Source: a virus (Duplodnaviria; Heunggongvirae; Uroviricota; Caudoviricetes). Taken from it: DNA of 26,985 nucleotides. The position numbers and the translations under genes were made by a program. The notes under the pieces were generated by a model, which was given only the letters and a program-made list of their open reading frames with translations, searched no databases and was not told the origin of the DNA. This document shows positions 5,429 to 24,835 of this stretch, piece after piece (the stretch's first letter is position 1; the number at the start of each line of letters is the position of its first letter). Where the stretch lies: IMG/VR virus record IMGVR_UViG_2579779007_000002; one strand, written 5' to 3'.

Positions 5429-6346
5429 TTACAGGTAGTCAGCGACAACCAGTTGCAGCTTGCCCTTCATCTCGTTGGAGACGGTGGTATTGCCATCCGC
5501 GAACAGTTCACGGTTAAGCAGTTGCTCTGCGGCTTTTTCCAGCCCGACCGGTACAACGATATGCGTCGGCTTCAGGCCCAGCTTCTTACCGCCATCACCT
5601 TCAAAAGAGCGCATCAGTTGCCAGCCCTTCCAGAGGTTATCCAGCGTCAGATCGCCTTTTACCGCGACAGCCATCTGCCAGAAGCCGTAACCGGCAGCAC
5701 GGCGGGCGCTGACACCAAACAGGAACTCGTTATCCATAAAAACGTGGTCGTCATCGATACGGGTACGTGCGACCAGCTCCGGTTTGCGGCGCTCCTGGAA
5801 AATCAGCGGTTTGACTGCGCGGGAGCAGTCCAGCAGATAGAACGGCAGACCGCTGAAGCTGTCCTGCTCAACGATGTTGGAGGTATTAACCGCGCTGCCC
5901 GTGCCGTCCACATTCGGATATACCGGATGCTCCTTGTCGAAGAAGTTCTGACCGTCATAGCACGGCTGGGTAAAGCCATCTTTCAGAAGTTTAAAAATCA
6001 GCTCATCCGGTTGAACTGCCGCAGAACGGCCCATCTCCTGAAAAATCGGCGCATAAATACCCAGATTGTCATCATCGAAGTCATCACGGGAAATACCCAC
6101 GGTGCCTTCAAACGTTTTATTGGCGATGGAGTAGCCATGCGCTTCCATTTGCTGAATGGTTCGCTTACCCACCCATTCTTTCAGGGTCGGGAATTTACCC
6201 AGCCAGCCATAGGTATTACTGCGGGTGGAAGATTTCACCACCATTGCAATTTTGCTGTACTGCGACGGGGCGTCTTCAAGACCGCCCTGAAAATCCTTAC
6301 GCCAGGAGGTCATCAGGGCTTTAATGGATGCCGGGGTGACAATCAT
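5429..6346 (-). CDS. T: major head (capsid) protein
   Basis: 305 aa ORF, same length as Mu T, directly downstream of protease/scaffold gene with a 4-nt overlap. Confidence 0.85.
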   Translation of the reverse strand: MIVTPASIKALMTSWRKDFQGGLEDAPSQYSKIAMVVKSSTRSNTYGWLGKFPTLKEWVGKRTIQQMEAHGYSIANKTFEGTVGISRDDFDDDNLGIYAPIFQEMGRSAAVQPDELIFKLLKDGFTQPCYDGQNFFDKEHPVYPNVDGTGSAVNTSNIVEQDSFSGLPFYLLDCSRAVKPLIFQERRKPELVARTRIDDDHVFMDNEFLFGVSARRAAGYGFWQMAVAVKGDLTLDNLWKGWQLMRSFEGDGGKKLGLKPTHIVVPVGLEKAAEQLLNRELFADGNTTVSNEMKGKLQLVVADYL

Positions 6347-14076: not shown

Positions 14077-14393
14077 GAATTACTCCGGTTTACTGCGTTT
14101 TCAAGCAGCAGCTCCAGTTGATGGGAAAATGACTGCACCCGCTGGGACAGCACCCGGATATCGCCGGACAGCTCTGCAATTCGCAGGCGCATTTCGTGTA
14201 CATCTTCTGTGCCAGGGATGCTGGCGTAGCGGGTTTCCATTTCGGTCATCCGGTTTTCAAGACGCTCCACACGCTCGGTGCTGGCAAAACTACGACGCAT
14301 CGCCCAGACGGCCCCACCGGCGGCGACAGGCAACAGGTACAACAGGTAAGGCCATAACGCTAAAACTGAATCCATTATTCTGCTCCACGGCAC
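14073..14393 (-). CDS. small membrane protein with N-terminal transmembrane helix; possible lysis accessory factor
   Basis: 106 aa; hydrophobic segment VLALWPYLLYLLPVAAGGAVWAM followed by charged coiled-coil-like tail; lies in the lysis cassette. Confidence 0.5.
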   Translation of the reverse strand: MPWSRIMDSVLALWPYLLYLLPVAAGGAVWAMRRSFASTERVERLENRMTEMETRYASIPGTEDVHEMRLRIAELSGDIRVLSQRVQSFSHQLELLLENAVNRSNS

Positions 14394-14569
14394 CAGTGGC
14401 AGTAGTTCGCCATCGGCTGCTGTCTCAGCACATCAGGCCGCAGCTCACGACCGCAACCGGCGCACAATACAGGCGGGTCATACGCCGCCGGACGGGGAAT
14501 ATCACGGGTATTCCCCTGCCAGAGTTCAGCGAGCAGCAGCGCCACCGCCCGGTTCTGGTCTTCGTTCAT
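14375..14569 (-). CDS. TraR/DksA-type C4 zinc-finger protein
   Basis: 64 aa with CAGC-x17-CHWC, matching the CxxC-x17-CxxC spacing of the TraR/DksA zinc finger. Confidence 0.5.
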   Translation of the reverse strand: MNEDQNRAVALLLAELWQGNTRDIPRPAAYDPPVLCAGCGRELRPDVLRQQPMANYCHWCRGAE

Positions 14570-21007: not shown

Positions 21008-21277
21008 TTAATGTTTAACCGCATTCACCGGATGTGGTACTAAATCACATTCAGCTTCCATACCCACTTTCTTCATAGTGGTCAGCATCTCATCTTTGGC
21101 CTTTTTAATAATTTCAGGAGCCATAGTCAGGACGATATTTGCCAGTAAATCATGAGGCCCGGTATTTTCCGTTGGCGAGATATCTGCAAGACATGCTTTT
21201 GCATCCAGAACTTCTCTGCGCCCATTGCAACCGTCACTACTTTCCAGCCATGTAAACTCAAAGATAACCTTTGCCAT
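21008..21277 (-). CDS. hypothetical early protein
   Basis: 89 aa ORF; unrecognised. Confidence 0.4.
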   Translation of the reverse strand: MAKVIFEFTWLESSDGCNGRREVLDAKACLADISPTENTGPHDLLANIVLTMAPEIIKKAKDEMLTTMKKVGMEAECDLVPHPVNAVKH

Positions 21278-21288
21278 TTTGTTTCTCC

Positions 21289-21543
21289 TTATTGATTCTG
21301 AATAACTGCGCTGGCTTTTACCTTCGCGCCTTTTACCTGCTTAAAGAAAACTGCGCTGCACCACGGACAACATGTCAGGGAATCCCGAATTTCCTTTTCG
21401 GGTGAGCATTGCGTCATAATCTGTTCACCACATCCGGGGCATTTATATGTCGTCAGCGGCACCCCGTGGCACTGACAGTGTTTAACCCATTCAATATATT
21501 TTTCAGCTTTAATACACATCGTTATCTCCAGATAATCTGGCAA
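21289..21543 (-). CDS. Cys-rich small protein, putative zinc ribbon
   Basis: 84 aa with 10 Cys, including CQCH, CPGCGE and CCPWC clusters. Confidence 0.45.
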
Positions 21544-21749
21544 CCATTAAGACGGGCCGTCCATACAGAACGGGCCACCCCGGACTTATGCTCCATAATT
21601 CTGACCGCGCTTTTTACCAGTTCCACCGGTGGGTAAGTGATTTCAAGAATCGGACGCGCCACACCGAGATATGATTCATTTACATGACTCCCGCGCGCCT
21701 GTAACCAGTTCTGCGCATCCGTTGCCATTTTTATATTTCGGGCCATCAT
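21522..21749 (-). CDS. small early protein at the kil position
   Basis: 75 aa ORF immediately downstream of B, the slot occupied by kil in Mu; identity not verified. Confidence 0.45.
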
Positions 21750-21764
21750 AATTTCTTCTCCTTC

Positions 21765-22703
21765 TTAATTACGCAGCAGCGTTGAAATATCAACGTCCAG
21801 GTCTAATTCACGGAAAGCCTGACGCAGATAATCTTCGTTAACACGCTCACCTTTACCGTGAGCCGTCATGGCTGCAAGGCGAAGTGAATGATTCAGAATG
21901 CGAAGCGCACCTGGTTTCTGCGCAATCTGCTGTAATAACTCCAGTTCTTTTTCGCCGTTAATCTGCCAGGCATCCGCAATAGCTTTTACATCGGCTTTTT
22001 TGGTTTTATTAATTGCAGTGCGCTTTGCAATACGGGAAAACAGACGGGCAAATTCAACCGTTCTGTTACCCCCCGTCATATTTGAATAAACCCGGTGATT
22101 TCCCATCAGCACAAGGCCAATACGGGTTGATTCCTGTAACAGGCGGAGTTCTTCCAGAACTTCGGCACCAAGATGATCAGCTTCGTCGATGATAACCAGC
22201 CCCTGTGTACCTTCAAGGCGACGTCGCAGGGCGCGGGAGAGCGGCCCTTTACGGCGTGGTGCGTCATTCATTCCCAGCTCAAACGCCAGTTCAGTAAGAC
22301 ATTCCAGAACGCTGGCACAGGATGGCGTAATGGTGATCATCCAGACATTGTTATTGGTGCGGCGATATTCACGGGCCGCTTCGGTTTTGCCCACACCAGG
22401 ATTGCCACATACAACAGCAATACTTTCAGTCAGGCTGGCAAAACGCATACTTGTCCAGATTTGTTTTACCGTCTGCGTTTCCACAAAGCGGGGCGGTTCA
22501 GGTAGTTCTGCAACTACATGATATTTTTCCAGCCAGCGTTGCAGCATTTGTGAAACACGCTCGTTATCCCCGTTGTACTTATCATTGATAAAACTACTGA
22601 TAGTTCCGGTAGAAAGTCCGCTCTCAAGAGCAATTTGTTTAAAGGTGGTTTCTTCATTTTCTACAAGCGTGCGCAGTCCTGCGCGAATATCGGAAATATT
22701 CAT
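21765..22703 (-). CDS. B: transposition ATPase / target DNA activator B
   Basis: 312 aa, same length as Mu B; P-loop GNPGVGKT and DEAD-like IIDEAD motifs; N-terminal helix-turn-helix. Confidence 0.9.
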   Translation of the reverse strand: MNISDIRAGLRTLVENEETTFKQIALESGLSTGTISSFINDKYNGDNERVSQMLQRWLEKYHVVAELPEPPRFVETQTVKQIWTSMRFASLTESIAVVCGNPGVGKTEAAREYRRTNNNVWMITITPSCASVLECLTELAFELGMNDAPRRKGPLSRALRRRLEGTQGLVIIDEADHLGAEVLEELRLLQESTRIGLVLMGNHRVYSNMTGGNRTVEFARLFSRIAKRTAINKTKKADVKAIADAWQINGEKELELLQQIAQKPGALRILNHSLRLAAMTAHGKGERVNEDYLRQAFRELDLDVDISTLLRN

Positions 22704-22741: not shown

Positions 22742-24835
22742 TTAAATGGCTTTTTTACGTCTGTTCTGTTCCAGAATATCCAGCGAATGATTCAGATATT
22801 CATCACGCTCAGTTTCGTATTCATCATCATGCACTTCCTCACACCTCAACGGCTGAACGGTCACCACATTACCAACAGGGCGATAAACATTATCCAGCCA
22901 GGGTTCTGTCGTTTTTTGTTCAATAACCTGAATACCTTCATCCTCAGCATCACGTATTTTTTCCTCAGCACGCTTGCGCATTCCTTTAATACGCTGCTGT
23001 TGTTTGTGATATTCAGCCGTAACAGGAAAGGCTGCGCGTTTATTGCCGTTCCATATCGCCTCACAGATAAAGCTACCGTCCTTACGGCGTACCGTAATTC
23101 GCTCGGCATCGTGAATGTCATAGCTGATAAGTACCTTGCGACCATGTTCATCACGTAGCTCTGGCGCGTAGTAAATATTGTTCAGCCACTGGATTTCGCA
23201 GCGTCTTACCGGACGCTCCACCATCGGGCGGAACATGTCACGCAGCTCAATATCACTCAGCCACTCAATTTCAGTGTCTTCTTCCGCTAAGCGTTTTTTT
23301 CTGAACTCTACCGGGCTGTAATGTTTTCCGTTTGGTTTCATCGGCAATTCAGAATGTGGGCGGTTGTTGTACCACTCCACCCCCTCACGGATAGCCTCAA
23401 TCAGTTCTGACCAGGACGGCAGCTCGCGCATTGCGGCTTTCTGACGGGCGCTCAGTGGCTTGTCCTGTTGCAGGGCATTAAACGCTGAACGCAGATCACG
23501 ATTAAGTATTCGCAACGATTCCCGGTCAGCCCCCTTGCCGAAATAGGTGCGATACCTCCTTGCTATACGCATCGGTAACGTCCGGTTCAGGCGCTCAATA
23601 ATGCCGCGTCCCTGCGGATTTCCCGCAATACCGGTGGGGTGGTTAATCCCCAGGCGGGGCAGAATCCCGACGATCTCTTTATCCAGCATATCTGCCGTTT
23701 CACCGGAACCATTATCCGAGTAATACAGGAATGGTTTTCCGTGATTGCGAATGCCGTGTTGTATCGCCCCGGCAACAGCGAACACGTTCTCCGCAAGATC
23801 AAGACTCCAGCCAACCACAAACCGGGTTCCACCGTCGATCACAAACGTAACTTCCGGTGAAAATGGACGCCCGTGAACCGGATGCGCACATTTCAGCTTC
23901 ATACCGTGACCGTCACCAATCCAGACATAATTCACCGGCATAGCTGTCCAGTCGCGGCGGGTGAATCCTTCAAGCTGACGGTATTCACTGCCGGTAACGC
24001 GCCCTTTTTGTTTCACCACTTCCGGCAGTTTTTTCATGGCATACCGGACAACATCATAGGAAGGCATCACCTCCAGCATGTATGGTTCGTCCGCATGGCG
24101 ACGCTGCCAATCAGCGACAAAATCCTCGTAGGCTTCTGACATAGGCCTGCCGTTAGCCTGACGATACTGCGCCAGAAATTCAGGCAGCCAGCTAATTTCT
24201 TCCGGTTTTATTTCGTCGCGCTTTCCTGGTGCCAGTAACAGCAATCGTTCTGCGGCATTCTGTGCTTTGTTAAACGCAGCTATCCAACGTTTGAGCGTAA
24301 TTGCGCTCAGAGTTCGCTCTTTCCCTTTACGGGCATTAGCAGTAATGACCAAAGATTCCAGGCGTTCTTCCAGGTTACCCTGAGCTAACCGCGACACAAT
24401 AAAACGTATAGCGCTGGCACAACTGAATCCCGGCTCCTGGCTAATTCGTAGAACTTCACAGACAAGAGCAATACGCGCTTCTGCAACTTTACGTTGATTT
24501 TCCGTAAGCGCATTCAGACGCTCTTCTACCAATTGTGGCGAACCGCGATATGCCTCAACAGGCTGTACAACATTTTGTTTGCGTTCACGCTTTACAGGAG
24601 GCTGGGTAGTTATCTCCTGCGGGGCGGTTGCCATCAGTTGAGCTACATGGCGCTCACGTAACGCCCGTTGTGTAACCGGAGGGAGGCAGTCGATGCTGTA
24701 TTCAATGGTTTTTGAACCCGCACGTTTGCGCCTGAAATGCTCAGATGAGGCCAGTTTCCTTATGGAATACCGCACCCCTTGCGCAGTTCCCGGCATACCT
24801 GGTAGCCCTACAAGCTCATTAACTGACACAAACAT
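22742..24835 (-). CDS. A: DDE transposase A (MuA-type)
   Basis: 697 aa; C-terminal end ...ERDEYLNHSLDILEQNRRKKAI matches my recollection of Mu A; N-terminal domain is Mu-type winged helix but divergent in sequence. Confidence 0.9.
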   Translation of the reverse strand: MFVSVNELVGLPGMPGTAQGVRYSIRKLASSEHFRRKRAGSKTIEYSIDCLPPVTQRALRERHVAQLMATAPQEITTQPPVKRERKQNVVQPVEAYRGSPQLVEERLNALTENQRKVAEARIALVCEVLRISQEPGFSCASAIRFIVSRLAQGNLEERLESLVITANARKGKERTLSAITLKRWIAAFNKAQNAAERLLLLAPGKRDEIKPEEISWLPEFLAQYRQANGRPMSEAYEDFVADWQRRHADEPYMLEVMPSYDVVRYAMKKLPEVVKQKGRVTGSEYRQLEGFTRRDWTAMPVNYVWIGDGHGMKLKCAHPVHGRPFSPEVTFVIDGGTRFVVGWSLDLAENVFAVAGAIQHGIRNHGKPFLYYSDNGSGETADMLDKEIVGILPRLGINHPTGIAGNPQGRGIIERLNRTLPMRIARRYRTYFGKGADRESLRILNRDLRSAFNALQQDKPLSARQKAAMRELPSWSELIEAIREGVEWYNNRPHSELPMKPNGKHYSPVEFRKKRLAEEDTEIEWLSDIELRDMFRPMVERPVRRCEIQWLNNIYYAPELRDEHGRKVLISYDIHDAERITVRRKDGSFICEAIWNGNKRAAFPVTAEYHKQQQRIKGMRKRAEEKIRDAEDEGIQVIEQKTTEPWLDNVYRPVGNVVTVQPLRCEEVHDDEYETERDEYLNHSLDILEQNRRKKAI

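Follow-up and report, generated by a model that had tools for sequence, protein, structure and literature searches.

A cysteine-rich open reading frame (ORF) in a 26,985-nucleotide stretch of viral DNA (IMG/VR record IMGVR_UViG_2579779007_000002, referred to at its full length as 'the window'), which belongs to a Mu-type transposable phage in reverse orientation, is by its sequence early gene 6 of bacteriophage Mu (gp6, Mup06, old name E5). The 76-residue product is predicted to consist of an N-terminal helix and a zinc ribbon carrying one structural Cys4 zinc site, and we tentatively suggest that gp6 serves as an adaptor or inhibitor, stabilised by zinc, that binds a conserved bacterial protein, a reading to which we assign a probability of roughly 40%. 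The gene itself is already known and catalogued, having been sequenced decades ago and belonging to both a Pfam family and a PHROG without a function. What our analysis adds is modest and comprises a corrected start codon and cysteine count, four candidate zinc ligands, a helix-plus-ribbon model, the spread of the family beyond Mu-like phages, and an allele mosaic.

Gene identity, start codon and family membership

The protein encoded in the window is 100% identical to Mu gp6 (NP_050610; NC_000929 4542..4772), with 76 amino acids (aa) as annotated there, and just as it lacks any difference from its Mu counterpart, its gene occupies the same slot after B and kil. The coding sequence extends from 21289 to 21519 on the minus strand (76 codons plus stop). 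The first-pass annotation, made without recognition of the gene as Mu gp6/E5, had located a cysteine-rich ORF here correctly; its boundaries (21289..21543) and its product of 84 residues have to be revised. TTG at 21543 is simply the first possible start after a stop and falls within the 3'-terminal part of kil, whereas translation credibly begins with the ATG at 21519, nine codons 3' of the TTG and preceded at 8 nucleotides (nt) by a GGAG Shine-Dalgarno (SD) sequence, which yields 76 residues as in Mu Mup06. The segment 21520..21543 (minus strand), a mechanical, TTG-started 5' extension, is outside the gene proper; the end of kil runs into it, and the GGAG ribosome-binding site of gp6 is located there. 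The TAA stop of kil ends 2 nt ahead of the gp6 ATG and the SD sequence is located inside kil (...CAGATTATCTGGAGATAACGATG), and translation of gp6 is probably coupled to that of kil.

We conclude that gp6 is a real, conserved and selected gene, because an SD sequence and ATG are placed for translational coupling, because 198 clusters at 50% identity (E≤1e-3, nearly all 70–100 aa) were recovered when 1.84 billion representative proteins were searched with a profile, because the ratio of nonsynonymous to synonymous substitution rates (dN/dS) between the two Muvirus gp6 alleles is 0.35–0.43, and because AlphaFold predicts a confident fold. Such dN/dS values below 0.5 indicate, for the sequences compared, purifying rather than diversifying selection overall. 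Two ORFs on the plus strand, 21271..21405 and 21409..21636, are mechanical products without support and were discarded.

Mu gp6 is the founding (type) member of the Pfam family PF26833 'Phage_Mu_gp6' and of phrog_3786. The latter, a family of unknown function, matches gp6 over residues 1–76 with E 1.1e-40, while all homologues retrieved from the large protein collection carry a precomputed PF26833 assignment; membership of PF26833 is thus read from the precomputed annotation of homologues, together with identity to Mu gp6, and not from direct scoring. Since PF26833 is newer than our local copy of Pfam, the local Pfam-A scan gave only sub-threshold matches to generic zinc ribbons. The sub-threshold matches from Pfam-A and NCBIfam (Zn_ribbon_ACC, E 0.03; FmdB, ECs_2282 and YnfU) were rejected as memberships. 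The protein exhibits the family pattern CPxC-x20-CPxC along with Y8, W/Y11, G19, T36, D46 and K60, the sole departure from the family motif being position 45 (R in Mu, W in 92 of 127 members). Literature searches for a function of Mup06, Mu gp6, E5 or PF26833 found no relevant paper, and gp6 is functionally uncharacterised. The functions of the semi-essential (SE) region of Mu have been described as 'largely unknown' (PMC3820752).

Conserved cysteines and the predicted zinc ribbon

The 76-residue product contains two histidines and nine cysteines (C2, C15, C17, C27, C30, C38, C50, C51 and C54), one fewer than the ten originally counted, and the three clusters CQCH, CPGCGE and CCPWC are all present as described. 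Cysteine accounts for 11.8% of gp6 compared with 1.4% overall, which is the highest content among the 38 ATG-started same-strand ORFs of at least 60 aa, so that the composition is not a chance feature. An alignment of 127 family members reveals that only C27, C30, C51 and C54 are conserved among the nine, forming two pairs in which the first cysteine is followed by proline. In the first knuckle (C27-P-G-C30; 21430..21441, minus strand), C27 is retained in 117, P28 in 124 and C30 in 125 of the 127 sequences; the corresponding numbers for the second knuckle (C51-P-W-C54; 21358..21369, minus strand) are 125 for C51, 118 for P52 and 126 for C54. At each of the other five positions cysteine is found in fewer than 10% of the sequences. 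Conservation in homologues, on which the first-pass annotation had staked its proposal, is therefore seen for the four candidate ligands and missing for five of the nine cysteines. Further conserved positions of the family are Y8, W/Y11, G19, L22, Y/F25, T36, P39, G42, W45, D46, S/T47, F58, F59 and K60.

Structure prediction, which had been proposed at the outset as a check, yielded a confident model of a helix followed by a zinc ribbon (AlphaFold; mean predicted local distance difference test score (pLDDT) 90.5, predicted template modelling score (pTM) 0.75). The model comprises a helix (residues 3–17) and five β-strands (22–26, 33–37, 44–50, 57–63 and 66–71), and the CPxC motifs are positioned exactly at the turns, with C27–C30 connecting strands 22–26 and 33–37 and C51–C54 connecting strands 44–50 and 57–63. 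With CPxC motifs at the turns of strands 1/2 and 3/4, the predicted architecture is by definition that of a zinc ribbon, that is, two CxxC hairpin-turn knuckles forming one tetrahedral Cys4 site in the model. Only the last six residues are modelled with low confidence, and D108 loses them by a stop at codon 74.

Foldseek with gp6 against the Protein Data Bank (PDB) found no match at E≤1e-3, and the best matches among solved structures are zinc ribbons; the nearest are generic Cys4 ribbons, namely the LysW carrier protein (3wwl), the delta subunit of sarcosine oxidase (1vrq_D) and ZitP (2nb9). A sequence-profile search of the PDB likewise returned nothing significant, its best match (E 0.23) being an antibody chain. 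In BFVD only uncharacterised family members from phages of Salmonella (ER24), Pseudomonas (phiR18, Lana, PMBT3) and Serratia (Scapp) were matched. The original designation 'putative zinc ribbon' is thus supported by the two conserved CPxC motifs, by the placement of the knuckles in the model, and by the identity of the best structural matches. We infer that gp6 itself would bind zinc.

The same annotation had envisaged one or two zinc-binding knuckles. Two knuckles are indeed found, and they are predicted to form a single Cys4 site; a second metal site is unsupported, because the CQCH cluster is not conserved and positions 15 and 17 are usually occupied by hydrophobic residues (L/A/V/M) and by alanine, respectively, across the family. 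Cysteine occurs at position 15 in 6 and at position 17 in just 1 of the 127 sequences. The cluster H14-C15-Q16-C17-H18 (21466..21480, minus strand) is located at the helix C-terminus and reads R-V-Q-N-N in the SfMu/YpM_5 allele; it is a lineage-specific decoration rather than a conserved metal site. One could still imagine that the Mu allele holds a second metal ion, or is redox sensitive, by virtue of C2, H14, C15, C17, H18, C38 and C50, given that nine cysteines and two histidines are packed into 76 residues and that the HCQCH motif is striking. However, none of these residues shows conservation, C15, C17, H18 and C38 are already substituted in alleles that are 68–82% identical, and cysteine is as rare at these positions family-wide as stated above, and we regard this possibility as very improbable.

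Several families of small enterobacterial zinc-binding proteins resemble gp6 in size and in possessing two CxxC motifs, i.e., the FmdB-type CxxC_CxxC_SSSS family (TIGR02605), ECs_2282 (NF047912), YnfU (NF038384) and Lar (TIGR03655), the last three of which are, like gp6, of phage or prophage origin. Nevertheless, scores of 15–21 bits against cut-offs of 31–40 bits show that gp6 is a member of none of them. Specifically, gp6 scores 18.0 bits (E 0.0023) against the FmdB family model with its cut-off of 31.3 bits, whereas for Lar (cut-off 39.6 bits) Mu gp6 gives no match and its homologue from phage Chi gives 15.7 bits (E 0.014).

Distribution of the family and a possible role

The gp6 family extends beyond transposable phages and is also encoded by Chi (as gp72), by dozens of further Casjensviridae of the Chi type, by Pseudomonas phage SS2019XI and Serratia phage Smarc5, and by 65-kb human-gut phage contigs. 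In IMG/VR contigs the homologue follows a cI-type repressor, has as neighbours a large recombinase-like protein and its Gp157-like partner, or lies near ParB-like genes, these neighbour labels being our reading of the translations and not Pfam assignments. Gene-neighbourhood clustering of 28 loci identified no family that constantly accompanies gp6, and longer proteins with a C-terminal gp6 domain show no recurrent partner domain (20 compared with Pfam, ten of them with PHROGs); in one of them the domain is joined to a dATP/dGTP pyrophosphohydrolase domain (P0086), perhaps only through faulty gene calling. Phage families unrelated to one another carry the gene in their early operons, and its role is thus not tied to transposition.

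The first-pass annotation had suggested that gp6 may be a small phage inhibitor binding host proteins or nucleic acid. Our suggestion that gp6 acts as an adaptor or inhibitor then rests on three properties considered together: a fold that is a minimal rigid scaffold, a net charge that is not conserved, and the occurrence in early operons of unrelated phages. In the mechanism that we propose, gp6 is transcribed from the early promoter within the 'semi-essential' region and translated, probably, by coupling to kil. The small soluble protein would have its amphipathic helix 3–17 packed on the five-stranded ribbon, with a single structural Zn(II) held by C27, C30, C51 and C54, and the ribbon would serve as a rigid scaffold that offers a partner protein a conserved polar patch made up of T36, D46, S/T47 and K60 from three adjacent strands. 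The likeliest partner would be a bacterial protein with a part in DNA metabolism or defence and conserved across the Proteobacteria, and the function of gp6 would be accessory and not essential for lytic growth. As an analogy only, the P2 Ogr/Delta proteins and the TraR/DksA-like regulators, with ∼70 residues and one Cys4 site, bind host RNA polymerase; zf-dskA_traR and Ogr_Delta are absent among the Pfam matches of gp6 at E≤1, and no corresponding structure was retrieved in the structure searches.

Could the ribbon instead bind nucleic acid, so that gp6 would be a DNA or RNA regulator or an accessory factor in early transcription, at transposition/replication intermediates, or in translation? 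The Mu protein is itself basic (pI 8.6, net charge +3.6), its gene lies near A, B and, farther away, gam, recombination- and ParB-like genes are neighbours in other phages, a weak, sub-threshold likeness exists to RNA-binding proteins of the zinc-ribbon kind as well as to ribbons of FmdB, TFIIB and Elf1 type, and two automatic source names read 'Elf1' and 'RpoP'. Across the family, however, net charge is centred on zero (median ∼0; 10th–90th percentile −4.7 to +6.2) and half of the members are acidic, with a pI below 7, which argues against generic nucleic-acid binding since a protein that binds a polyanion is expected to be basic. Moreover, the similarities to other ribbons all fall below curated thresholds and originate mainly from the CxxC motifs, and conservation outside the cysteines is strongest at aromatic and Pro/Gly residues together with D46 and T36, with no basic run. 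We thus consider a nucleic-acid-binding function unlikely.

Extending the adaptor or inhibitor proposal from Mu to all relatives, it is tempting to speculate that the Phage_Mu_gp6 family constitutes a widespread, as yet unrecognised class of early zinc-ribbon proteins that neutralise a conserved proteobacterial defence or DNA-repair/replication protein; this broader claim we hold to be rather doubtful.

Alleles, neighbouring genes and annotation

Two gp6 alleles circulate in Muvirus, i.e., the Mu/D108 type, which is that of the window, and the SfMu/vB_YpM_5/PhiR68_1 type. Between the two proteins 17 residues are exchanged, all within positions 3–49, and the final 20 codons are identical; on the DNA level they are ∼80% identical over codons 3–56, whereas the adjacent kil and B are 96–100% identical. 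Two sharply diverged alleles with changes clustered at residues 14–49 in so uniform a background are what might be expected of an anti-defence protein that, by analogy with Lar, neutralises host restriction or abortive infection. The location of the gene in an early, non-essential region and the wide spread of the family over unrelated phage families are likewise compatible with such a role, as are the weak match of the Chi homologue to the Lar model and the presence of a Lar-like domain in the gene directly downstream in phage SS2019XI. Yet the similarity to Lar is far below the cut-off, a profile comparison (hhalign) between the gp6 family and the Lar-like neighbour in SS2019XI gives a probability of 1.4% and hence indicates that the two are unrelated, and the dN/dS of 0.35–0.43 is that of purifying, not diversifying, selection. 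Overall, a Lar-type anti-defence function has in our judgement a low probability. The gene in question is gp40 of Pseudomonas phage vB_Pae-SS2019XI (3239-4054), the C-terminal part of which matches phrog_3592 'Lar-like restriction alleviation protein' with E 8e-15. PADLOC gave no match for gp6; its library holds defence and not anti-defence proteins, and the result is hence uninformative.

The next gene, gp7 (gp6 and gp7 together span 21008-21519), exhibits its own two-allele pattern with alleles that are just ∼40–50% identical, and the window pairs a Mu-type gp6 with a gp7 of the vB_YpM_5/PhiR68_1 type. The two genes have therefore been exchanged independently, and shuffling at the scale of single genes is what accessory genes of phages typically show. 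The window phage resembles Yersinia phage vB_YpM_5 in the N-terminus of A, the immunity end and the gp7 allele. The transposase gene A is represented by a mechanical ORF of 697 aa (22742..24835, minus strand), the last ∼200 nt of which, just upstream of B, are ∼40–50% identical to Mu, D108 and SfMu and 98–99% identical to vB_YpM_5. The megablast match of Mu, D108, Mu_3F6 and PhiR68_1 to the window ends near 22832; most of A and the immunity region are therefore unlike Mu. On this comparative evidence the window phage is a mosaic Muvirus of Mu/YpM_5 type, and not Mu itself. Codon 45 (21385-21387) specifies Arg in Mu and in the window and Trp in D108 and the SfMu-type allele, as it does in most of the family. 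Arg45 in Mu and the stop at codon 74 in D108 suggest some relaxed constraint in the Mu lineage.

Upstream of gp6 lie the early gene B (21765..22703, minus strand) and kil (21522..21749, minus strand; phrog_2743 Kil, E 4e-43), in agreement with the placement originally given, second after B and close to kil. Downstream follow homologues of Mu gp7, gp8, gp9, Gam (PF07352, E 4e-42) and gp11. Mu-like prophages of Citrobacter and Kosakonia, the gp6 of which is 31–33% identical, keep the order repressor-ner-A-B-(96 aa)-gp6. The 96-aa gene in their kil slot (5702-5992) belongs to phrog_2041 (E 3e-18), to which Mu Kil shows a non-significant match (E 0.074), and its product may be either a very remote relative of Kil or an analogue residing in the kil slot. 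The tight junction of kil and gp6, with 2 nt between stop and ATG and the SD sequence inside kil, and the order A-B-(96 aa)-gp6 with its weak link to Kil would be consistent with a two-gene module in which gp6 modulates, chaperones or antagonises the septation inhibitor Kil or acts on a second envelope or division target. However, coupling and synteny are both limited to Mu-like phages, the family has no Kil-like neighbour in Chi, the Pseudomonas and Serratia phages or the gut contigs, and the link between Kil and phrog_2041 is itself non-significant, so that we deem such a module improbable. The killing function is reported to map to kil alone.

The gp6 gene is present in 36 of 5426 complete E. 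coli genomes (∼0.7%). RefSeq/PGAP shows no feature over the gene in the E. coli genomes listed with the Mu-type gp6 (at least 99% identity); for example, in E. coli W (NC_017664) the gene at 324745-324975 falls into a 244-bp annotation gap, with WFL_RS01595 skipped between RS01600 and RS01590. The divergent allele (∼84% identical) is annotated in E. coli genomes as a hypothetical protein. In the former genomes a conserved real gene is thus omitted from RefSeq/PGAP annotation. The Chi-like Serratia phage JS26, for which a Tn-seq preprint exists, has no record among the tblastn matches listed. In the window itself, a second small cysteine-rich ORF (14375-14569, minus strand; 64 aa, 6.2% cysteine, two CxxC motifs) is located in the region that follows the early genes; the single Pfam match, to NinF, is weak and sub-threshold (E 0.008).

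As the result of a genome scan, the present analysis has re-identified a catalogued gene and family and not a new kind of system. For all that Mu is a model phage, no function has been assigned to the majority of genes in its semi-essential early region. Being genuine, selected, and confidently predicted to fold as a single-site ribbon with relatives beyond Mu, gp6 represents a tractable candidate for a host-interaction screen, and if the family does act as inhibitors throughout, the allele-specific variable surface formed by residues 14–49 would mirror how the protein has adapted to different forms of its target.
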